DNA of 64,000 bases, taken from positions 13,934 through 77,933 of IMG/VR virus record IMGVR_UViG_2823261200_000003; one strand, given 5' to 3'. A model generated the notes under the pieces. That model was not told where the DNA came from. It saw only the letters and a list, made by a program, of their open reading frames with translations, and ran no database searches. The translations under genes and the position numbers were made by a program. The stretch is from a virus (taxonomy: Duplodnaviria; Caudoviricetes). Below, in pieces: positions 2,934 through 62,518 of the stretch (within the stretch, counting starts at the first letter, position 1; each line of letters starts with the position of its first letter).

Positions 2934-3617
2934 ATGGATAAAAGAGAACACCGAAGACAAAAACTTCAAGAGCTGATTAATGATGTTGCAAATGGCACTG
3001 TATCTGAATTTGCTAAGTTAGTAGGAAAAGAGCCGAGCTATATCTCTAGAATGCTTTATCCTGCCGATAAACCTCAGGCTAAGCCTATTGGGGAAAAAAT
3101 GATTAGCCATATTTGCAATGCATTAAATATTCCTACTAATTGGTTTGATAGCGATGACAAATTACCTCAAATACAGTCTTCTAAATATCAGATCGAATTG
3201 TTATCTGATATAGAGGCAAGTGCTGGTTATGGAGTTGTAGGCGGAGATACTTATAGTGCGGTTGAGTTAATCCAATTTTCTGAAGAACAATACACAATGC
3301 TTTTCAGTAATATCCGCTCTGAATATATAAAAATTGTTAATGTGCGGGGCGATAGTATGAGTCCAACATTCGAAAGCGGAGATTTGCTTTATGTTGATAC
3401 TCGGATCAGGCATTATGACGGTGATGGTATTTATATTTTCATTTATTCAGGCTATCGACACGTCAAACGCTTGCAAATGGCAGGCTCAAAATTACTCGTG
3501 CTTTCCGATAATAAAGCGTATAAAGAATGGGAAATCAATCGGTCAAATGAAGATGAATTTTTCATAGAGGGAAAAGTAATGGTTTCTCAATCTCAAGCAA
3601 TTAAACGATTTGGATAA
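2934..3617 (+). CDS. cI: CI repressor (HTH + S24 autopeptidase)
   Basis: ASAG cleavage site, VRGDSMSP catalytic Ser, VKRL catalytic Lys. Confidence 0.95.
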   Translation: MDKREHRRQKLQELINDVANGTVSEFAKLVGKEPSYISRMLYPADKPQAKPIGEKMISHICNALNIPTNWFDSDDKLPQIQSSKYQIELLSDIEASAGYGVVGGDTYSAVELIQFSEEQYTMLFSNIRSEYIKIVNVRGDSMSPTFESGDLLYVDTRIRHYDGDGIYIFIYSGYRHVKRLQMAGSKLLVLSDNKAYKEWEINRSNEDEFFIEGKVMVSQSQAIKRFG

Positions 3618-3731: not shown

Positions 3732-4094
3732 ATGACAGAAACAAATATTGAAAAAGTAAAAGCACTTTTATTACAAGAACAAAGAGGAAAGATTAACAAA
3801 GAGGAGATCATTGAAGAAATTGCAATGGGGAGAAATCCATTATTAACGGCGAATGATATTGCTAATAGGCTTAGTATACCGATTGAGGTATTTCATCAAT
3901 GGGTGAAAAATGCTGATCAAAACTATCAAATTCCAGCTAATTCTTTGGTTGGTATGGCTAGAAATACAATCATCAACAGCACATTAAATCGAACAGAAAC
4001 TAATAAATTTGCTAAACCCGATTTCTACATCGGAAATTATCCAAGATGGACGTTAGATACTTTTAAAACTTGGTTAAGAGCAAATTTGAAATGA
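3732..4094 (+). CDS. AlpA/Xis-like winged-helix protein with internal insertion
   Basis: LLTANDIANRLSI...FAKPDFYIGNYPRWTLDTFKTWL; homologue at 51833. Confidence 0.7.
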   Translation: MTETNIEKVKALLLQEQRGKINKEEIIEEIAMGRNPLLTANDIANRLSIPIEVFHQWVKNADQNYQIPANSLVGMARNTIINSTLNRTETNKFAKPDFYIGNYPRWTLDTFKTWLRANLK

Positions 4095-4198
4095 AAAAGG
4101 CAAGGATTAACCTTGCCTTATTAGATAGGATAAACCTATCGACACTTTAACAAAAGACACTCAGGTATAACCCTAAGGCTTCGGGACGTAGCCATCAA
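4094..4198 (-). ncRNA. Candidate structured ncRNA (RNA antitoxin/regulator of the HEPN Abi)
   Basis: Promoter TTGACC-17-TAGTAT, CCCGAAGCCT core, two hairpins, terminator AAGGCAAGG-N5-CCTTGCCTT-TTT; same layout at 52227-52332. Confidence 0.7.
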
Positions 4199-4203
4199 AG
4201 CGA

Positions 4204-4232
4204 ATACTACTAAAAATAATAATACAGGTCAA
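4204..4232 (-). promoter_or_regulatory. Promoter of the candidate ncRNA
   Basis: -35 TTGACC (4232-4227), 17-bp spacer, -10 TAGTAT (4209-4204). Confidence 0.7.
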
Positions 4233-4241
4233 GTAATAAAA

Positions 4242-5054
4242 ATGTTATTATTACAGCAAATAGATGCAATATCATTGAGTCGCCTAACTCCTTATAAGAA
4301 TTTATGCACATCAAACAACAAATTGGAAGAATACAAACTTGCAACTTGCGTATATCTTTCTTTGCAACACCGCACAGGAATATTTTTTTCACTCATACAA
4401 GAGCTTGAAGTTGCAATTAGAAATGAAATGAGCAAAATTTTGAAAAATCATGTCGCACCTAACAAAGATCTGTTAGCTTACTTTTGTTTTTTAGCTTGTG
4501 ATAATCAAAGTCAGCTTTTAACAGAGAGTAAACGAAATCTAAAGCTTGGGATTGCTAGCCTCCTTAATTTACGGATAAACCAAATTACAAATGCTAGAAC
4601 AACAGAAAGAACACTAAAAAATAGAAGATTAAATGAAAATGATCTTATTGCAGCTATAACATTTGGTTTTTGGGTACATTTACTTAACGATGATATAAAT
4701 AAAAATCCTCATTTTCTTTACTGGTCTAATATTTTTTCTCCGCTACTTTTTGGGGGGAGATTTAACTCAACTGTAGATATTTTTAAATCATTGAGAACAA
4801 TATTAGCCTTTCGCAATAAGCTATATCACCAAGAACCAGTATGGAAGAAGCGTAATGTCAATACTCCGCACAAAGCACTCTCTGAGCTTCAGAGGAAATA
4901 TCAACTATTTCTTACTTATTTAAGTAAGATAGCCCCATATAGAATCAAACTAAGAGAAAAGGCTACACTTCAAAAATGGTTAGATGAGCTTAATTTCAAT
5001 CCAGAAGTATTTGATTCAGAAATAGATAAATTAAAAGCACAATCATTCATTTAA
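4242..5054 (+). CDS. Abi-like (AbiF/AbiD, Abi_2-related) HEPN RNase
   Basis: ISLSRLTPY, ELEVAIRN, ITFGFW and the RxxxxH motif RNKLYH-QEP. Confidence 0.85.
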   Translation: MLLLQQIDAISLSRLTPYKNLCTSNNKLEEYKLATCVYLSLQHRTGIFFSLIQELEVAIRNEMSKILKNHVAPNKDLLAYFCFLACDNQSQLLTESKRNLKLGIASLLNLRINQITNARTTERTLKNRRLNENDLIAAITFGFWVHLLNDDINKNPHFLYWSNIFSPLLFGGRFNSTVDIFKSLRTILAFRNKLYHQEPVWKKRNVNTPHKALSELQRKYQLFLTYLSKIAPYRIKLREKATLQKWLDELNFNPEVFDSEIDKLKAQSFI

Positions 5055-5591: not shown

Positions 5592-5813
5592 ATGCAAAAC
5601 GAAATGAAACGCTATGCAATTTCTTACTTCTTCAAAGGAAAGAAGTGGTGTTCAGATGTCTACGCCAACTCATTTGAAGAAGCACAAGAAAAAGTCAAAG
5701 CAATGTCCCAAGCAACTATTGATGGTGAGCTTTACTGTTCAATATATGTTCCAGTCAAGCCACAATCACGCATTGCAAGGTTGCTTTTAAAGCTACTACA
5801 TAAATTTAGCTAA
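5592..5813 (+). CDS. Conserved phage hypothetical protein (first pL gene)
   Basis: GAGG RBS; identical protein at 53592. Confidence 0.75.
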   Translation: MQNEMKRYAISYFFKGKKWCSDVYANSFEEAQEKVKAMSQATIDGELYCSIYVPVKPQSRIARLLLKLLHKFS

Positions 5814-6648: not shown

Positions 6649-7336
6649 GTTTACTGATGAACATATTGCTTTTATCCGTGAACATAAAGATTTAGCTCCT
6701 AAAGATCTCATTCAGGCCTTTTATCAACAATTTGGTTTGCTAAAGAATAGGCAGGTTTTTAGAAAGCTAAAAAAACGATTAGGAATTATCTCAACGGTTC
6801 AACATTGCAATCGATATACCAAAGAAGAGTTAGCCTTTATCAAAGAAAATTGCACTTTACCGCAAGCGGAATTAACCAAACTATTTAATCAAAAGTTTAA
6901 CCGTAATCAGACCGCACAAGTAATTAGGGTACTGTGTGCTAAAAGAGGTTGGCTGACTGGTAGAAATGGGCGATTTAAAAAAGGAGAACATTTAAAGCCT
7001 ATTGGTTACGAGCGATTTTGCCCTATGGCAAAAGCCGTGTTGATAAAAACAGGAGTTAAGCGTTATGAAAGAAAATCACGTGTTATCTGGGAGCAAGCCT
7101 TTGGCAAAATCCCTCAAGGATTTGTTTTGTGGTTTAAAGACGGCAATATTCAAAATTGTGAGTTATCTAATTTAGAACTAATCAGTCGTAATGAAATGCT
7201 ATGGCGACATAAGCTGAATTACCACGAATTAGACAGCAGTGTGAAACAAACTTTTAATGTGTTTATTCAACTACGAGAAAAATTGATAAAACTCAAAAAG
7301 CAACAGCAACAAAAGGACCGCATAGCAAAAGGATAA
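6629..7336 (+). CDS. HNH-like protein with two N-terminal helical repeats
   Basis: IWEQAFGKIPQGFVLWFKDGNIQNCELSNLELISRNE; repeats FTDEHIAFIREH / YTKEELAFIKEN. Confidence 0.75.
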   Translation: MTKKRFRFTDEHIAFIREHKDLAPKDLIQAFYQQFGLLKNRQVFRKLKKRLGIISTVQHCNRYTKEELAFIKENCTLPQAELTKLFNQKFNRNQTAQVIRVLCAKRGWLTGRNGRFKKGEHLKPIGYERFCPMAKAVLIKTGVKRYERKSRVIWEQAFGKIPQGFVLWFKDGNIQNCELSNLELISRNEMLWRHKLNYHELDSSVKQTFNVFIQLREKLIKLKKQQQQKDRIAKG

Positions 7337-7391
7337 GCTAAGGTGCTGTCACCACCTGAGATTGTAGGTTCAAGTCCTACTGCGGTCGCCA
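7316..7391 (+). tRNA. tRNA-Asp(GTC), atypical D arm
   Basis: Acceptor GACCGCA/TGCGGTC, G discriminator, encoded CCA, anticodon arm AGGTG-CTGTCAC-CACCT, T arm GTAGG-TTCAAGT-CCTAC. Confidence 0.75.
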
Positions 7392-9080: not shown

Positions 9081-9400
9081 TCTAGCCCCTTGCTAAAAAC
9101 AAATGTATTTTAGGTTAAACTAACAAACAAAACAAGTTATTTTTTGGTTTAAGCTAAAATATTTTTTAATTTGACACCGCCCAAACTTCAGCGTAAACTA
9201 CCCCCACTTTCAAACGAAAGTCGGGATTGGCGTCCTGAGTGTTACGAGCGGTCAAAAATAACAGTCGCTCAAAGCGGCTTTTTTTATAGCCGAAAATCAG
9301 AAAATCAAAACCTTTTTAAAGGTATCCCCAAAATGGGGAACCCTTTAAAACTTCTATAAAGGGTAACTCAATTTGAGACCCCCTTTAAAAAAGTAGTCAA

Positions 9401-9475
9401 TGATGGGCTGATTGAGGGGATCGAAAGATCCACCGTTTCTCGTAACACGGTACGCCAACCTTGATCAGTTCATCA
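9401..9475 (+). ncRNA. C4-type antisense RNA
   Basis: Closing stem TGATGGGCTGAT/ATCAGTTCATCA, GAAA hairpin; CTCGTAACAC and ACGCCAA are complementary to upstream (9227-9248) and downstream (9483-9521) sites. Confidence 0.85.
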
Positions 9476-9531
9476 CCAGTAATTGGCGTTACTTGTGATG
9501 AGTTTTTAAAATTTGTTGCGAGATTTAAATT

Positions 9532-17488: not shown

Positions 17489-17570
17489 TGATCGGGTGGC
17501 GTTTCGTACATACAATACCGCAAGGAAAAACGAAAGGCTGACTATTGGCAGTGTTGAAGCACCCGATCGC
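17489..17570 (+). ncRNA. C4-type antisense RNA
   Basis: Stem GATCGGGTG/CACCCGATC, GCAA hairpin; CTATTGG and GTGTTGA pair with CCAATAG/TCAACA sites up- and downstream. Confidence 0.85.
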
Positions 17571-17619
17571 CCTATCTCAACAGTAGGGAAATATAAAATA
17601 CCAATAGGATAAAAAAATT

Positions 17620-45138: not shown

Positions 45139-45218
45139 TGGTCGAGAGTGCGAGGAATATAACACCGCAAGGGAATAACTCCGCTCGATTCGTTACGAGT
45201 TTTGAGCTCTCGACCGCC
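45139..45218 (+). ncRNA. C4-type antisense RNA
   Basis: Stem GGTCGAGAG/CTCTCGACC; TTCGTTA and TTTTGAG pair with TAACGAA/CTCAAAA sites up- and downstream. Confidence 0.85.
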
Positions 45219-45254
45219 CTAGTAAGGGAATTTCTCTCAAAAGGAAATAACGAA

Positions 45255-50177: not shown

Positions 50178-50618
50178 TTATTGCTTATGAATAGCAATCG
50201 CCACTTCGATCGCTTTTGCCGTGGTCTGTTGTGATTTGTGCAATAACTTATGCAACACATCTTGTTCTTCCTGCGTCAGTACGCCATCGCTCAAAAATTC
50301 GTTGAGCTTGGCAAATAAAATCCCACGCTCAGCAAGTTCTTGCAGTTGTAACTGCGATAGCTCGACTAAGTCAGTTTCGTTTTCGTTCGGTACAGCAAAA
50401 CTCACCTTGCCTAAACGCCGATTGATTTCATCCGACCAATTACTTACGCCATATTCAAGCTCAATGGCAATCAATTCTTCGCAGGTGAAGCGTTGTCCTT
50501 TGGTTTGATACAGGCGGTTATTCAATGCCTGTTCTGTCATACCAAGAAAGCCCGCCACGGCTGCTTTCCCGCCTTGGCACTTTTCTATCATTTCAATAAT
50601 TGTTTTCTTCATTGCCAT
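50178..50618 (-). CDS. CII-like / YmfL-family regulator
   Basis: Identical protein to 2093-2533. Confidence 0.75.
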   Translation of the reverse strand: MAMKKTIIEMIEKCQGGKAAVAGFLGMTEQALNNRLYQTKGQRFTCEELIAIELEYGVSNWSDEINRRLGKVSFAVPNENETDLVELSQLQLQELAERGILFAKLNEFLSDGVLTQEEQDVLHKLLHKSQQTTAKAIEVAIAIHKQ

Positions 50619-50887: not shown

Positions 50888-50950
50888 ATTACCGCCAGTA
50901 AAATAAAGGTCAATATTTGCGGTAATTTTACTTTTACTACTGTTGGTAAT
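50888..50950. promoter_or_regulatory. OR operators and pR of prophage B
   Basis: ATTACCGCCAGTAAA, AATATTTGCGGTAAT, ACTACTGTTGGTAAT; minus-strand TTGACC-17-AATAAT. Confidence 0.75.
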
Positions 50951-50981
50951 ATGCTTTAAGAAAAACCGAGAGAAATGCCCA

Positions 50982-51749
50982 ATGAGTACACAAAAAAAGA
51001 AAGAGCTCACATCGGAACAAAAAGCAGAATGTGAGAAGCTAAACGCTATTTACGAGCAAAAAAAATCAGAACTAGGACTAACACAAGCTTCTGTTTCAGA
51101 GAAATTGGGGATTAATCAAAGTGCGGTTAATCACTATTTAAAAGGAACGAATGCCTTAAATGCCAACATTGCAAGTAAGTTTGCAAGATTATTGAATATT
51201 ACAGTGGATCAGTTCAGCCATCGCATATCGAATGAAATTAAACAAATGGCTGATACATTAGATCAAGAAAAGTTAAATGAAATTATCTTATTAGAAAAAC
51301 GTCCGAAAAATTCAGTGACAATCCCATTGCTAGACATCTATGCAGCAGCGGCACCAACTGGAATTATTAATGTAGATTATCCAGAAGTGATTAAAGAAAT
51401 TACGATTGATCAAGATCAAGTTTTAGAGCTGCTAGGGCGTAAAACCATTCAGGGGATCAATCTGATCAATGTGCCAACAGATTCAATGAGCCCTACAATT
51501 AACAAAGGTGATGTCGCTTTTATTGATGTTACTTGTCGTTGCTATGCAGGAGAGGGAGTTTACGCTTTTGTTGATGAATATGGAGAATTGTTCATTAAAC
51601 GCCTACAAAAAGTGCCAAATGGCGGAATAAAAATTTTATCGGACAATCCTCACTACGCCCCATTAGATTTTACTCAAGAGGAATTGGAACGTTGTTACAT
51701 TATGGGGAAATTGGTCAAAGCACTGCCATTACATATGATTGATCTATAA
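50982..51749 (+). CDS. cI: Lambda-type CI repressor
   Basis: MSTQKKKELTSEQ...YEQKKSELGLTQ lambda-like arm and HTH; DSMSP and IKRL S24 motifs. Confidence 0.93.
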   Translation: MSTQKKKELTSEQKAECEKLNAIYEQKKSELGLTQASVSEKLGINQSAVNHYLKGTNALNANIASKFARLLNITVDQFSHRISNEIKQMADTLDQEKLNEIILLEKRPKNSVTIPLLDIYAAAAPTGIINVDYPEVIKEITIDQDQVLELLGRKTIQGINLINVPTDSMSPTINKGDVAFIDVTCRCYAGEGVYAFVDEYGELFIKRLQKVPNGGIKILSDNPHYAPLDFTQEELERCYIMGKLVKALPLHMIDL

Positions 51750-51832: not shown

Positions 51833-52240
51833 ATGATTAAAAAATTTGAAGATATTAAAGATGATATTGTTGCATCTCAACTTTCACAATCCTATGAAAA
51901 GGTATTAATAGATAATATGTTACAAGGGAAACGAGAATTACTTTCAGCGAATGATATTATAGAAATGCTTGGAATTTCTTCTGACGAATTTAAAGAAATG
52001 CTCGATCTTCCAAATCATGTCCTTTTTGCGTCAAATGCAAGAGCTGTCTTCGATCTTACTAGCCGATTAAATCCTGCTAATGCAAAATATGAACTCATTA
52101 ACACAGAATTAAAACAAAGTACAAAACTCCCTAAACCAGACATTTACATTATAGGAAAAGCAAGATGGGCAAAAGGAACTATCAAAAATTGGTTAGAAAA
52201 TCAAACAGGACATAGTACAGATAAAGAAAAGGCAGGTTAA
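51833..52240 (+). CDS. AlpA/Xis-like winged-helix protein with internal insertion
   Basis: LLSANDIIEMLGI...LPKPDIYIIGKARWAKGTIKNWL; homologue of 3732. Confidence 0.7.
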   Translation: MIKKFEDIKDDIVASQLSQSYEKVLIDNMLQGKRELLSANDIIEMLGISSDEFKEMLDLPNHVLFASNARAVFDLTSRLNPANAKYELINTELKQSTKLPKPDIYIIGKARWAKGTIKNWLENQTGHSTDKEKAG

Positions 52241-52332
52241 CCACCTGCCTTCCTGAACCGCAAACAAGCGGCTCTCACACTTTACAAAGCTTGTCGGCTC
52301 CTACGTCCGAGGCTTCGGGCTCATTACCAGTA
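52227..52332 (-). ncRNA. Candidate structured ncRNA (RNA antitoxin/regulator of the HEPN Abi)
   Basis: Promoter TTTACT-17-CATAAT (52366-52338), CCCGAAGCCT core, CTTTGTAAAGTGT box, hairpin, terminator AAGGCAGG-N7-CCTGCCTT-TT. Confidence 0.7.
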
Positions 52333-52373
52333 GACGCATTATGACAAAAAACAAATAATGAGTAAAGAAAAAA

Positions 52374-53117
52374 ATGTTATCAAAACAAATTACGAGTATT
52401 TCACAAAGCAGGTTAAGCACTTATCTGCTTTGTTTTTATCAAAGTGATCAGTCAAAACAAAAAGAAGCCATTGCTATCTATACCGCATTACAACATCGTG
52501 CGGGTATTTATTTTTCTCTTATTCAAGAAATAGAGGTCGCATTAAGAAATGAAGTGAGTGAATTACTTCGCCAAGCTGCCCCGAATAACGATTTATACCA
52601 ATTTTTTCACTATTTAGCACAAGACAAAAATGCACCACTTACAATCGAATCACAACGCCAACTAAAAAAAGCAATTAGTGAATGCAATAAAAAACATTAT
52701 GATGAGAACGACATTATTTCTCACATTAGCTTTGGTTTTTGGGTAAATCTTTTTGATTACGATATAAAGAGAAATAAACACATTATTTACTGGCAAACCG
52801 TCTTAAAACCTATATTTAATCGTAGGTTTAATAGTTTCAAAGACTTATACAACACATTGAAACAAGTAATGCGTTTCCGTAATCGCCTCTACCATCAAGA
52901 AATAATTTGGAATAAGAAAACATCAAAGCATCCAATTCAAGCACTTAAAAATTTAGAGAAGACCTATACTCAGTTTGAGCAAGTGTTACAAAAAATTGCT
53001 CCAGAAAGATTTTCCTTTCGACAGCTATCACAAGCATTAATTTGGCAAAGAGATATATTCTTTGACCAACAACTCTTCTGTGCTGAGATTGGCATCTTGC
53101 CAACACATATTAAATAA
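52374..53117 (+). CDS. Abi-like (AbiF/AbiD, Abi_2-related) HEPN RNase
   Basis: ISQSRLSTY, EIEVALRN, ISFGFW, RNRLYH-QE. Confidence 0.85.
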   Translation: MLSKQITSISQSRLSTYLLCFYQSDQSKQKEAIAIYTALQHRAGIYFSLIQEIEVALRNEVSELLRQAAPNNDLYQFFHYLAQDKNAPLTIESQRQLKKAISECNKKHYDENDIISHISFGFWVNLFDYDIKRNKHIIYWQTVLKPIFNRRFNSFKDLYNTLKQVMRFRNRLYHQEIIWNKKTSKHPIQALKNLEKTYTQFEQVLQKIAPERFSFRQLSQALIWQRDIFFDQQLFCAEIGILPTHIK

Positions 53118-53591: not shown

Positions 53592-53813
53592 ATGCAAAAC
53601 GAAATGAAACGCTATGCAATTTCTTACTTCTTCAAAGGGAAGAAGTGGTGTTCAGATGTCTACGCCAACTCATTTGAAGAAGCACAAGAAAAAGTCAAAG
53701 CAATGTCCCAAGCAACTATTGATGGTGAGCTTTACTGTTCAATATATGTTCCAGTCAAGCCACAATCACGCATTGCAAGGTTGCTTTTAAAGCTACTACA
53801 TAAATTTAGCTAA
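53592..53813 (+). CDS. Conserved phage hypothetical protein
   Basis: Identical to 5592-5813. Confidence 0.75.
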   Translation: MQNEMKRYAISYFFKGKKWCSDVYANSFEEAQEKVKAMSQATIDGELYCSIYVPVKPQSRIARLLLKLLHKFS

Positions 53814-54840: not shown

Positions 54841-55542
54841 TTAGCTCTTATTTTTATCAATATCATCTTTTGAGCTCTCAGGGATCATTGCTGGCAAGGT
54901 AAAAGTATATTGTAAAAAGAGTTGGCTAAATAATCTTAGCTCCTCCAATTCATCGAGTGTAAAATCATTATAGGTATGAGAAGCTTCAGCACTTAATGTT
55001 CTAATATGCAATGCAAAATTCTTCAAATCTTTGGTAAGTTTTCCCTCTTCAAATAACTTTTCAATACGCTTATTTAATTTTGCTCTGCTATCATTCTCTG
55101 CTAATTCACACAATGCACGCTCTAAAGTTGAGCGATATGCATTTCCAGAAGCTTTGACAAAATGCGGTTTAGCTTTTACTTGTAAAAAAAGATCTTCAGC
55201 TGTCAGAAGCTCTTCTTCTACCGAACTAGGTAAATATTCGGGAATTTCTGCAGTTTTCGTATTATTAGGATAGAATTGAATCCATCTCCCATCGGATAAC
55301 TCCTGTAAATTGTAATTATTTTTACTAGTTAAAAGAGAGCGAATTCTGTTTAGCTTTTGTTTAGAATGTGAATCATCTTGTACTGCAAGATCACCAATAA
55401 TCGCACTACTGCAGGTATTACAAGTGGCTAATAATGAGAAAATAGAATAATTAGTAAATTTATCATTTTCATAGTACGTTTTAATCTCAAATCCCCCATG
55501 TTTAACGCCACAATGGGGGCAATCATAAGCAAAGGTAATCAT
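54841..55542 (-). CDS. Zn-ribbon + DUF4145-like (HEPN superfamily) moron
   Basis: CPHC/CNTC; YRSTLERAL, LNKRIEKL, IRTLSAEASH, YTFTLP; antisense to the early operon, AT-rich. Confidence 0.8.
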   Translation of the reverse strand: MITFAYDCPHCGVKHGGFEIKTYYENDKFTNYSIFSLLATCNTCSSAIIGDLAVQDDSHSKQKLNRIRSLLTSKNNYNLQELSDGRWIQFYPNNTKTAEIPEYLPSSVEEELLTAEDLFLQVKAKPHFVKASGNAYRSTLERALCELAENDSRAKLNKRIEKLFEEGKLTKDLKNFALHIRTLSAEASHTYNDFTLDELEELRLFSQLFLQYTFTLPAMIPESSKDDIDKNKS

Positions 55543-55723: not shown

Positions 55724-55911
55724 CATTGACAACCGCCGCCCTTTGATCTAGGATATACCTACTTTCAAACGAAAGTCGGGATTTGCAACCTGAACTATGA
55801 GAGCGGTGAAAAAGATAGACGCTCAAAGCGTCTTTTTTTATAGCCGAAAACTAGCCTAATCAAACCTTTGAAAGGCAACGTCAAATTGACGTACCCTTTC
55901 AAAGTAGTCAA

Positions 55912-55985
55912 TGATGAGCTAGATGGAGGGATCGAAAGATCCGCCGTTTCTCGTAGCGGTATTGCAAACTCTGTCTAGTTCATCA
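55912..55985 (+). ncRNA. C4-type antisense RNA
   Basis: Stem TGATGAGCTAGA/TCTAGTTCATCA; TCTCGTAG and TTGCAAA pair with CTA(C/T)GAGA and TTTGCAA sites. Confidence 0.85.
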
Positions 55986-56040
55986 CCAACGATTTGCAAC
56001 GTTAGTGATGGTTTTAAAACTTAAACTACGAGAAATCAAA

Positions 56041-62135: not shown

Positions 62136-62387
62136 ATCAAGCCCCTTACTTGATGTAATGCCATTATAAGTGTACTAATATTTTATTGCAAGCACTTTTA
62201 TAACAAAATCCCTTATTGACACCGCCCAGCTCTTATATTAGGATATAACCACTTTCAAACGAAAGTCGGGAATTGGCGTTCCTGAAATTGTACTGGCGGT
62301 TAGAATTGGTAGTCGCCTAAATGGTGGCTTTTTTTATAGCCGAAAATCAGCAAATCTACCTTTTGCGGAATTTTCCGCAAAACCCAA

Positions 62388-62461
62388 TGATGGGCTGTAT
62401 GGGAGATCGAAAGATCGCCGTTATCCAGTACAACGGTACGCCAATCTCGTACAGTTCATCA
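62388..62461 (+). ncRNA. C4-type antisense RNA
   Basis: Stem TGATGGGCTGTA/TACAGTTCATCA; CCAGTACA and ACGCCAAT pair with TGTACTGG and ATTGGCGT sites. Confidence 0.85.
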
Positions 62462-62518
62462 CCAGTAATTGGCGTTACTAGTGATGAGTTCTAAAACTTA
62501 TGTACTGGAGAATGTCAA

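Follow-up and report, generated by a model that had tools for sequence, protein, structure and literature searches.

A conserved opposite-strand RNA element beside a distant AbiF-like HEPN gene in two diverged prophage loci: a candidate antitoxin

What occupies the gap between a small ORF and an abortive-infection (Abi) gene that two diverged prophage loci keep in the same form? The 64-kb window, i.e., the whole stretch of viral DNA analysed here, carries these two loci, A and B. In both, the plus-strand gene order is as follows: a cI-like repressor gene, a small ORF, the gap, and the Abi gene. At locus B, the module sits directly downstream of a cI-like gene (50943-51749, plus strand) whose product matches Pfam HTH_3 and S24 peptidase. 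Small ORF B (51833-52240, plus strand, 135 aa) is followed by gap B (52241-52373) and the gene for Abi B, an AbiF/Abi_2-like HEPN protein (52374-53117, plus strand, 247 aa). Locus A consists of a cI-like gene (2934-3617), small ORF A (3732-4094, plus strand, 120 aa), gap A (4095-4241), and the gene for Abi A (4242-5054, plus strand, 270 aa). The Abi proteins are 40% identical and the small ORF products 30%, in line with the clear divergence described in an earlier note on this DNA. The same note took the cI proteins to be unrelated. They are strongly diverged and can be aligned only in the C-terminal S24 peptidase part; since that part aligns at 31% identity, the pair is diverged, not wholly unrelated. 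Both copies occur within one record, each in its own prophage immunity region.

On the minus strand, both gaps display a promoter-like site, three stems designated P1, P1b, and P2, and then a hairpin followed by a T-run. This is the order of elements that the earlier note had proposed, and each was found in its place. The promoter-like site of locus B, TTTACT-17-CATAAT next to the Abi ATG, was recovered by the scan at 52366-52338 (minus strand) as a consensus match, with a TG preceding CATAAT; that of locus A (TTGACC, 17 bases, TAGTAT) lies at 4232-4204 (minus strand). The predicted small RNA B extends over 52222-52331 on the minus strand, about 110 nt, both ends being predictions. It begins with a single-stranded 5′ segment ahead of P1. 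P1 (52317-52312 with 52290-52285) encloses P1b, the TCGG/CCGA hairpin (52310-52307 with 52297-52294). A single-stranded UAAAGUGUGA (52284-52275) separates P1 from P2, the GAGCCGC/GCGGTTC hairpin (52274-52268 with 52261-52255), and a terminator-like hairpin followed by a T-run was located by the terminator scan at 52253-52227. This last hairpin overlaps the final codons of small ORF B, and the overlap of the RNA with coding sequence is about 20 bases at most. The minimum-energy fold of RNA B (-43.1 kcal/mol, z -3.36) has exactly this layout of P1, P1b, P2, and terminator. The predicted small RNA A (4090-4198, minus strand, about 109 nt) is laid out likewise, with P1b as CUUAGG/CCUGAG, P2 as GAUAGG/CCUAUC, CUUUUGUUAAAGUGU between these two hairpins, and a terminator hairpin at 4119-4097 from the terminator scan; its minimum-energy fold is -34.8 kcal/mol (z -4.37).

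Helix P1 changes how the shared sequence boxes are to be read. P1 pairs CCCGAAGC with GCTTTG, a pairing that the first reading had overlooked, so that two of its boxes are the opposing strands of one helix. The CGAAGC-GCTTTG pairing is obtained both by RNAalifold on a plain MAFFT alignment and by RNAfold on single sequences. The element CCCGAAGCCT, proposed as invariant, is indeed exact in B (52310-52319, minus strand) and in A (4176-4185, minus strand), these being the only exact copies in the 64 kb; among relatives, only its CCGAAG portion is kept, along with TTTG and TAAA. A further box, CTTTGTAAAGTGT (52277-52289, minus strand, in B), was said to be retained in both copies. The A counterpart reads CTTTTGTTAAAGTGT, with two extra T; therefore, this box is not identical between the copies. 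Two other features were considered and rejected. The first was a pseudoknot joining the 5′ segment to the P1b loop. Inspected by eye, C/U in the 5′ segment does not vary together with G/A in the loop, the exceptions being L005, L012, and copy B. As for an RNA-encoded peptide, the 7-codon ATG frame of copy B is absent from those B-type relatives that read CAACGG there.

To what extent is the element conserved, and with what is it linked? A covariance model, R1, was built from 16 sequences, with hits counted at E ≤ 1e-5. In the whole window it finds just two sites, RNA B at 96.3 bits and RNA A at 50.3 bits (E 1e-11), and it also matches relatives outside its training set (e.g., L031 at 4e-8 and L053 at 4e-13). 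Over 41 sources it gives 40 hits (33 distinct rows) in 39 of the 41, and all 40 lie directly upstream of an Abi gene on the opposite strand. Counted by locus, 40 of 42 related loci have the element next to their Abi gene, facing the other way. Two A-like loci, L045 and L047, carry at the same place a different, shorter RNA-like element that R1 misses. When whole genomes were searched starting from the RNA, a divergent Abi-like ORF was found 23-92 bases away in 8 of 8 loci, and no unlinked RNA copies were found among 151 Pasteurellaceae genomes. The small ORF accompanies 38 of the 40 hits. In L009, from a Bergeriella chromosome, RNA and Abi gene are flanked by a permease gene and ileS, and the pair stands there without cI or small ORF; both neighbours face the other way, so that there is no same-direction upstream operon. 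Plasmid relatives at about 31% identity, from E. coli (L067) and Vibrio (L068), gave no R1 match upstream even with filters off. At the protein level, roughly 20 clusters reach E ≤ 1e-30. Among 400 genomes from the class of one source genome, G001 (one genome being unscored), protein matches at E ≤ 1e-15 were found in 2, one of them G001, and among 401 genomes from the order of a second, G002, the single match was G002 itself. Viral contigs scanned with more distant representatives gave no further loci, and GenBank phage records gave no DNA match to either locus.

The pattern of change supports a conserved fold. The 33 distinct rows fall into three subtypes, and one variant type was studied besides. 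Stems are paired in 95.2% of 561 cells, compared with 26-47% when partners are slid; these cells are not independent events, since 27 of the 33 distinct rows belong to one subtype, and the alignment used for the pairing and strand counts was fitted to the minus-strand model and leans towards that structure. In 9 of 17 pairs both positions have changed, i.e., stem sequences differ while pairing is kept, as had been claimed from the two copies alone. Shuffles reached the observed value in 0 of 500 trials on four measures and in 4 of 500 on a fifth. RNAalifold on the plain MAFFT alignment finds the same three stems. Invariant across relatives are only CCGAAG, TTTG, and TAAA, plus a 5′-segment pattern, ..TG...A.G.., and the three motifs (CCGAAG, UUUG, and UAAA in the RNA) are kept between subtypes whose proteins are just 40-48% identical. 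In the B type, there are few versions of the 5′ segment, and the P1b loop is nearly constant. The idea that the first 12 or so nucleotides are free to vary thus did not hold. Also in the B type, 268 of 273 pairs show higher identity in the RNA core than in the abi DNA (84% versus 75%). Taken as sequence evidence, these data confirm a real conserved structured RNA element, above chance.

The minus strand is favoured for this RNA gene, i.e., the strand opposite Abi, on four sequence-derived grounds: the G-U excess, the side of the T-run, the kept promoter-like site, and the more stable fold. On the minus strand, the cells include 75 G-U pairs against 3 A-C, which bears out the earlier argument from two stems of the B copy. 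Read on the plus strand, 82.4% of cells are paired, and most stems are Watson-Crick and could form on either strand; the 75 G-U cells turn into A-C mismatches, and each of the 33 distinct rows has such a mismatch halfway along P1. After the last hairpin, there are 6.2 T per 10 nt on the minus strand versus 1.8 on the plus, and for 30 of 31 distinct 3′ ends it is the minus strand that has the larger T count. The corresponding plus-strand folds reach -33.3 kcal/mol for B and -29.5 kcal/mol for A, versus -43.1 and -34.8 on the minus strand. The -35/-10 pair keeps its position in all subtypes. In RNA B, the -35 box covers the abi ribosome-binding region; in the L008 type, it overlaps the abi ATG, which is 15 bases from the extracted segment. 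On the plus strand, the scan finds a weak promoter-like site in gap B (52331-52359, TAGACG-17-AATAAT) and none in gap A. A search of public sequencing runs gave best shares of 0.13 and 0.10, with no strong carrier of the window. One run holds a 212-base contig over 52090-52301, that run's RNA label being a guess, and a second holds contig pieces within both ORFs; in neither case do contigs inform on strand, RNA ends, or expression.

Sequence and model point to the Abi protein as a remote relative within the AbiF/Abi_2 HEPN group. Abi B matches Pfam Abi_2 (PF07751) at 26.8 bits (E 7.7e-6; gathering cut-off 25.6), and no Pfam model matches Abi A at E ≤ 0.01. The best defence-library match for all four subtypes is PADLOC PD-T4-5 (PDLC04038), with E-values of 2.7e-16 (Abi B), 1.3e-15 (Abi A), 6e-13, and 1.6e-9, the matches spanning profile positions ~11-240 of 309 in a library without curated cut-off. 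The PADLOC AbiD model matches the L008 protein alone (E 0.005). Abi B contains an R-x4-H motif, FRNRLYH, of the HEPN R-x4-6-H catalytic type, whose residues R169, N170, and H174 (R-N-x3-H) do not vary across 44 aligned sequences. The AF2 model of Abi B has a pLDDT of 96.9, and Foldseek against the PDB places 8vz6_A at the top (probability 1.00, TM 0.52/0.45, 270 columns, E 0.08), all other hits having TM ≤ 0.21. FRNRLYH aligns with RNSCCH of that chain. By sequence, the sole PDB match is likewise the PbAbiF protein of 8VZ6, at E 0.061. Identity to 8VZ6 is 16%. The 8VZ6 entry is PbAbiF bound to its ncRNA (Prevotellaceae bacterium, AbiFr). BLASTP against the AbiF of phage phiC2 gave no significant match.

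AbiF with an RNA antitoxin is already published as a type III toxin-antitoxin system, in which AbiF is the toxin and the ncRNA blocks the HEPN site (PMC12373285, PMC13064643, PMC12737573). What differs in the present loci, on sequence grounds, is an opposite-strand RNA with its own predicted promoter that is unmatched by the Rfam abiF motif. The comparison is with the AbiFr of 8VZ6 and with RCd22/AbiFCd of C. difficile prophage phi027 and phage phiC2, i.e., type III systems of abortive infection. Common to those systems and the present loci are a single HEPN protein that adopts the Abi_2/AbiF fold and carries an R-x4-H motif, one structured RNA of about 100 nt adjoining the gene, an intrinsic terminator, and prophage carriage. 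The P1/P1b domain also has the topology, shape, and polarity of the Rfam abiF consensus: the outer stem has 6 bp, a single nucleotide bulges out 5′, the inner stem is short, and the internal loop lies on the 3′ side. In contrast, AbiF ncRNAs as described lie upstream of the gene on the same strand (PMC12373285), whereas the RNA here is predicted on the opposite strand, driven by a separate promoter and pointing away from abi. Such an arrangement would rule out co-transcription with the toxin. The present loci also differ in the co-conserved small HTH ORF and in lying downstream of cI and not in a lysis module. Searched at E ≤ 10, neither strand of either gap matched the abiF motif, RF03085; as a positive control, the same search finds the motif upstream of phiC2 abiF at 37.6 bits. 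Nor did Rfam as a whole yield a family for either gap, all hits being chance-like (E 0.27 to 7.5).

Other known systems resemble the loci in part. PD-T4-5 is described as a distant AbiF/D relative, a plasmid-borne abortive-infection defence with a toxin-antitoxin-like look, reported as a single gene (PMC9519451). The closest plasmid relatives examined are L067, at 31.5% identity, which may not be PD-T4-5 itself, and L068; it is these that lack the R1 match. ToxIN, AbiQ, and the classic type III systems likewise combine an RNase toxin, a cis-encoded RNA, and abortive infection, features that would hold here by analogy. In those systems the antitoxin consists of tandem repeats, which are encoded upstream of the toxin, share its transcript, and are cleaved by it; at the present loci, the RNA strand is opposite, the toxin fold is unrelated, and there are no tandem repeats (Tandem Repeats Finder returned 0 rows in both loci, i.e., no repeat array). 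For type I antitoxins and cis-antisense phage RNAs, of which lambda OOP is an example, base pairing is the mode of action, and a conserved fold is not required. The present RNA is like them in being a small RNA with its own predicted promoter opposite protein genes, its terminator overlapping the 3′ end of a neighbouring ORF, and unlike them in that fold and short motifs are conserved across subtypes.

The small ORF matches no Pfam, NCBIfam, or PADLOC family. Small ORF A matches PHROG 597 at E 7.6e-5, and small ORF B matches this family, "DNA binding protein", weakly (E 0.003). Confidence in the AF2 model of small ORF B is low (pLDDT 64). RacA, TorI, and the GIsul2 excisionase come up as fold matches to this model, all of them weak (E > 1) and to be taken as leads. 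Small ORF B is probably a winged HTH protein of the MerR/excisionase type, with an insertion.

We propose that each locus is a toxin-antitoxin-like abortive-infection module in which a HEPN RNase toxin is held by an opposite-strand RNA antitoxin, a reading to which we assign a probability of roughly 0.55. Abi is predicted to be an RNase toxin by analogy with AbiF, and the RNA is probably its antitoxin on the same analogy. The module would work as follows. From the prophage immunity region, a sigma-70-type promoter of its own would produce an opposite-strand RNA of ~105-110 nt. Its first base would lie ~20-45 bases from the start codon of abi, and in L009 farther off, at nearly 100. The RNA would head away from abi and stop at an intrinsic terminator that coincides with the small ORF's 3′ end. 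As in the published AbiF-ncRNA pairs, it would bind a HEPN dimer and block the active site. The conserved motifs may contact the HEPN protein, the likely contacts being hairpin P1/P1b and the always single-stranded UAAAG motif. A phage that shuts down host transcription or degrades this RNA would then free the RNase, and the cell would arrest. Transcription of the RNA, binding to the protein, neutralisation, and the release trigger are each what we infer for this module. The promoters of RNA and abi probably compete, because the RNA promoter overlaps the abi ribosome-binding and promoter regions. The two copies might also cross-talk, since both RNAs carry the single-stranded UAAAGUGU and CCGAAG; no support emerged for the orthogonal pairs that the earlier note had suggested. 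Weighing against the antitoxin assignment are the opposite strand, the lack of an RF03085 match, the remoteness of the AbiF likeness, the other RNA type in L045 and L047, the plasmid relatives that R1 does not match, and the co-conserved small ORF, which could be the true partner.

Could the RNA act without binding the protein at all? A purely cis-regulatory RNA would lower expression of abi, and perhaps of the small ORF, either by pairing with cI-operon transcripts that read through the gap or by promoter competition or polymerase collision. The layout lends itself to this: the RNA gene sits between two plus-strand genes, so that a read-through transcript would be fully complementary to the RNA; read-through is plausible because few T follow the plus-strand hairpin; and the RNA -35 box overlaps the abi ribosome-binding region, or the ATG in the L008 type. 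Yet plain antisense action needs no conserved sequence or fold, the stems covary, the CCGAAG, UUUG, and UAAA motifs persist across subtypes with 40-48% identical proteins, and the Bergeriella copy has no operon upstream in the same direction from which to read through. We regard this reading as possible and rather doubtful. Much less probable is a plus-strand structure that would serve abi as a 5′ leader or attenuator, like RCd22 and the abiF motif in Clostridioides difficile. Published AbiF ncRNAs lie upstream and on the gene's strand (PMC12373285), the phiC2 control illustrates this, and the 82.4% of cells that pair on the plus strand would allow most stems. A leader would have to tolerate the 75 A-C mismatches, including the one in mid-P1 of every distinct row, carry its terminator hairpin at the 5′ end with the T-run on the wrong side, and adopt a fold 5-10 kcal/mol less stable, and we consider it very unlikely.

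The small ORF itself might be the real antitoxin or regulator of Abi, in a type II layout, leaving the RNA an accessory as a terminator or as a phage small RNA with other targets. Its presence upstream in 38 of the 40 hits, its divergence in step with Abi (30% and 40% A-B identity), and its HTH-like features speak for this; the Bergeriella locus, which keeps RNA and Abi without the small ORF, the stronger constraint on the RNA than on abi in the B type, and the absence of a family match to known antitoxins speak against it and make it improbable. The least probable reading makes the RNA a guide in the manner of a proto-crRNA, which would direct the HEPN protein to phage or host transcripts complementary to it, its variable parts setting the target. 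Its appeal comes from the proposal that Cas13 derives from AbiF and its ncRNA (PMC12737573, PMC13064643). A guide of this kind, which the earlier note had raised, finds no hypervariable single-stranded stretch to reside in: variation between subtypes falls mostly in covarying stems, the B-type 5′ segment and P1b loop are conserved despite a difference of ~25% in abi DNA, and a repeat array is lacking.

A tentative extension of the antitoxin reading draws on the type I likeness as well. One RNA might serve both as a protein-binding antitoxin (type III) and, at the level of transcription or by antisense action, as a restraint on abi (type I), expressed from an independent divergent gene with interlocked promoters, and the co-evolving winged-helix protein might tune the pair from within the immunity region. 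If so, the "single-gene" PD-T4-5 clade needs searching for RNA partners, and the dosage of a guide-like RNA and of its HEPN effector would be uncoupled, as in separate crRNA and cas13 units.

AbiF with its ncRNA is a recently recognised type III system and a proposed ancestor of Cas13 (PMC12737573, PMC13064643). In the papers cited here, the RNA partner is in every case an upstream leader that is co-transcribed and bears a single Rfam motif. The loci described here add a clade remotely like AbiF/PD-T4-5 whose RNA is of another kind, with clear covariation and no Rfam match. If this RNA is an antitoxin, the RNA partners of HEPN Abi proteins would be more varied than the abiF motif, searches restricted to the upstream region on the same strand would miss such partners, and "single-gene" Abi_2-like defence genes may be two-part systems. 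The two diverged copies in one record constitute a natural pair for the specificity of RNA-protein recognition.

The window belongs to a record of 77.9 kb that is classified as a provirus. Loci A and B, its two prophage copies of the module, share one gene order on the plus strand: a cI-like repressor, a small ORF, a gap, and the Abi gene. In locus B, the repressor lies at 50943–51749, the small ORF at 51833–52240, and the Abi gene, after a gap of 133 bases, at 52374–53117. The corresponding genes of locus A are at 2934–3617, 3732–4094, and 4242–5054, with a gap of 147 bases. Abi A and Abi B are 40% identical, the small ORFs are 30% identical, and the repressors can be aligned over the C-terminal S24 peptidase part only (31% identity). 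In contrast, a 146-aa minus-strand protein (2093–2533 and 50178–50618) and a 73-aa plus-strand protein (5592–5813 and 53592–53813) have identical products in both prophage-like regions. With identical flanking ORF products and diverged repressors and Abi modules, the immunity regions have a mosaic look. A 233-aa ORF (54841–55542), which lies downstream of locus B and is read from the minus strand, begins with an N-terminal CxxC...CxxC zinc-ribbon-like start. Rfam matches in the window at gathering score, listed together, fall at 9255–9480, 55809–55990, 62383–62466, 17490–17576, 45140–45223, and 7316–7388. They comprise three C4 antisense RNAs, two copies each of Aggregatibacter sRNA 82 and sRNA-Xcc1, and one tRNA; each sRNA 82 copy lies directly upstream of a C4 antisense RNA copy.

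Read on the minus strand, gaps A and B have the same predicted fold in single-sequence folding. This confirms the core observation of the earlier note, i.e., that an RNA architecture is conserved in a second, diverged locus. Every gap element listed there is at its position in the window. The conserved boxes are present in both copies, except that copy A reads CTTTTGTTAAAGTGT, not CTTTGTAAAGTGT, and two boxes taken as separate, CGAAGC and GCTTTG, pair as the two strands of one stem, helix P1, in RNAalifold and single-sequence folds. From 5′ to 3′, the layout is a 5′ single strand, P1 enclosing hairpin P1b, single-stranded UAAAGUGU, hairpin P2, and a GC-rich hairpin with a T-run after it.

Abi relatives were gathered from genome, viral, and metagenome contigs, and a covariance model of the RNA, R1, with 17 base pairs was built on 16 distinct upstream regions. 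On 41 sources, R1 gave 40 matches at E ≤ 1e-5, representing 33 distinct rows; two sources, L045 and L047, had no match. Standard pairs occupy 95.2% of 561 cells, and sliding the 3′ partners by 1–3 columns lowers pairing to 26–47%. Nine of the 17 base pairs show changes on both sides, so the claim that stems differ while pairing is kept holds. Shuffles reached the observed value in 0 of 500 cases on four measures and in 4 of 500 on a fifth, in an alignment that was fitted to the model and in which 27 of the 33 distinct rows are of one subtype, the shuffles ignoring relatedness. RNAalifold on a plain MAFFT alignment finds the same three helices. Single-sequence folds reproduce them in every subtype, the exception being L009, a chromosomal locus without P2.

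The element is structured and conserved, and its sequence favors the minus strand, as the earlier note had proposed. Four lines of sequence evidence agree. Paired columns hold 75 G-U cells versus 3 A-C cells in the minus-strand reading. The 10 bases past the last hairpin contain on average 6.2 Ts on the minus strand versus 1.8 on the plus strand, and 30 of the 31 distinct 3′ regions are T-richer on the minus strand; the script picked the wrong hairpin in the exception. Every subtype has a −35/−10 pair spaced by 17 bases, in most cases TG-extended, whose distance from the RNA core is constant though its sequence differs. Finally, the minus-strand fold is 5–10 kcal/mol more stable than the plus-strand fold. 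Public sequencing runs yielded contigs only; a 212-base contig in one run, whose RNA label is a guess, is identical to window positions 52090–52301, and one end falls within the RNA gene, short of the CCCGAAG box.

The RNA element is strictly linked to an AbiF-like HEPN gene. All 40 R1 matches lie directly upstream of an Abi gene, on the opposite strand. Whole-genome searches with the RNA as the starting point gave a single match per positive genome, and a divergent Abi-like ORF starts 23–92 bases from the RNA in eight of eight loci; among 151 sampled Pasteurellaceae genomes, only 6 carry the RNA. Of 273 pairs within the B type, 268 show stronger conservation of the RNA core than of the abi DNA (84% vs. 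75% identity). Two metagenome contigs, L055 and L054, keep an intact RNA (101 and 99.5 bits), and a script search found no full-length abi ORF of at least 200 codons beside it. The abi frame of L055 has an apparent shift about 30 codons in. This could be a broken toxin gene with the RNA kept, or an assembly error.

The Abi proteins of L045 and L047 are A-like, and both loci retain the minus-strand layout of promoter, terminator, and T-run. Their RNA-like elements (L045:1350–1441 and L047:908–999, minus strand, metagenome loci) are shorter and different: GGACGUAGG is kept and pairs downstream, and the differences between the two copies preserve stem pairing. Since their GUAAAG sits in a hairpin loop, UAAAG is the one motif that stays unpaired in most forms, with UAAAA in its place in L009 and L031. 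More distant Abi relatives (31% identity) occur on a 3.1-kb E. coli plasmid (L067:1–360) and a Vibrio plasmid (L068:1250–1500). Neither has an R1 match; a GC-rich hairpin flanked by runs of T or A lies about 100–130 bases upstream of each gene, and these loci may have RNA partners of their own.

Abi B barely passes the Pfam Abi_2 cut-off, and Abi A has no Pfam Abi_2 match. PADLOC PD-T4-5 is the best model for all four Abi subtypes (E 2.7e-16 to 1.6e-9); PD-T4-5 is described as a plasmid-borne abortive-infection defense distantly related to AbiF/D (Vassallo et al., PMC9519451). Against PDB sequences, a 44-sequence Abi profile has a sole match, 8vz6_A (E 0.061), in which the R-N-x3-H motifs line up. 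The Abi AlphaFold model (pLDDT 96.9) has the same entry, "PbAbiF dimer bound to ncRNA", as its sole clear structural match (probability 1.00, TM 0.52); the remaining matches have TM ≤ 0.21. The subfamily is small, with 20 of 1.84 billion cluster representatives at E ≤ 1e-30, 131 at E ≤ 1e-10, and 1371 at E ≤ 1e-3. The small ORF matches no family in Pfam, NCBIfam, or PADLOC searches. Its low-confidence model (pLDDT 64) has a helix-turn-helix, a disordered insertion, a beta-hairpin, and a helix, with a weak predicted resemblance to MerR/excisionase-type winged helices (E > 1).

AbiF with an upstream ncRNA is presented as an established type III toxin–antitoxin system in PMC12373285, which also describes RCd22 of C. 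difficile as co-transcribed with abiF, carrying two abiF motifs (RF03085), and binding and neutralizing its toxin. In the structure of PbAbiF with its ncRNA, the HEPN site is reported to be blocked by the RNA (PMC12737573, PMC13064643). An Rfam search detects RF03085 upstream of phiC2 abiF on the same strand (37.6 bits, the positive control) and none in gap A or B, on either strand, at E ≤ 10. In the RF03085 consensus structure, the outer stem has 6 bp, the 5′ bulge 1 nt, the inner stem 3 bp, and the 3′ internal loop 6 nt. In the minus-strand reading, P1/P1b equals it in topology and polarity, a resemblance rather than demonstrated homology. In the published class, however, the RNA is on the same strand and co-transcribed, which the predicted arrangement here is not, and the RNA contains the abiF motif, which is absent here. 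Full-text literature searches, supplements and Zilberzwige-Tal et al. 2025 excepted, retrieved no account of an Abi_2 protein whose RNA partner lies on the opposite strand.

Other roles have to be weighed. As a plus-strand leader, the element would be read with its 75 G-U cells turned into mismatches, one of them mid-P1 in 33 of 33 distinct rows. The RNA could also have a purely antisense or interference role. A guide RNA, as suggested in the earlier note, has the least support among the rivals, as the single-stranded parts are conserved and not hypervariable. The orthogonality of the A and B pairs is likewise unsupported.

The small ORF itself might be the true antitoxin. An ORF of 98–140 aa ends at the RNA terminator in 38 of the 40 R1 matches; of the other two, one is cut by a contig end and one is L009. 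There (L009:2291–3244, Bergeriella denitrificans chromosome), an amino-acid permease gene and ileS flank the RNA–Abi pair, no prophage is visible around it, and neither repressor nor small ORF is present; nearly 100 bases separate the RNA 5′ end from the ATG. Since L009 keeps both RNA and Abi, this pair is the unit that is kept intact, with the small ORF as a third component that is frequent in prophages.

A functional reading of the RNA with Abi is plausible by analogy, if unproven. An RNA of about 105–110 nt would be transcribed from its own promoter, bind the HEPN dimer, and mask the active site; the likely contacts are P1/P1b and UAAAG, which is always single-stranded. On infection, the RNA would be lost and the RNase freed. 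The −35 box of the RNA overlies the abi ribosome-binding region or, in the L008 type, the ATG, and the conserved 5′ motif UGGCAA is complementary to a plus-strand −35-like TTGCCA. Because of this overlap and complementarity, the RNA and abi promoters may, speculatively, exclude each other. So far as can be judged, the locus would operate like an AbiF system.
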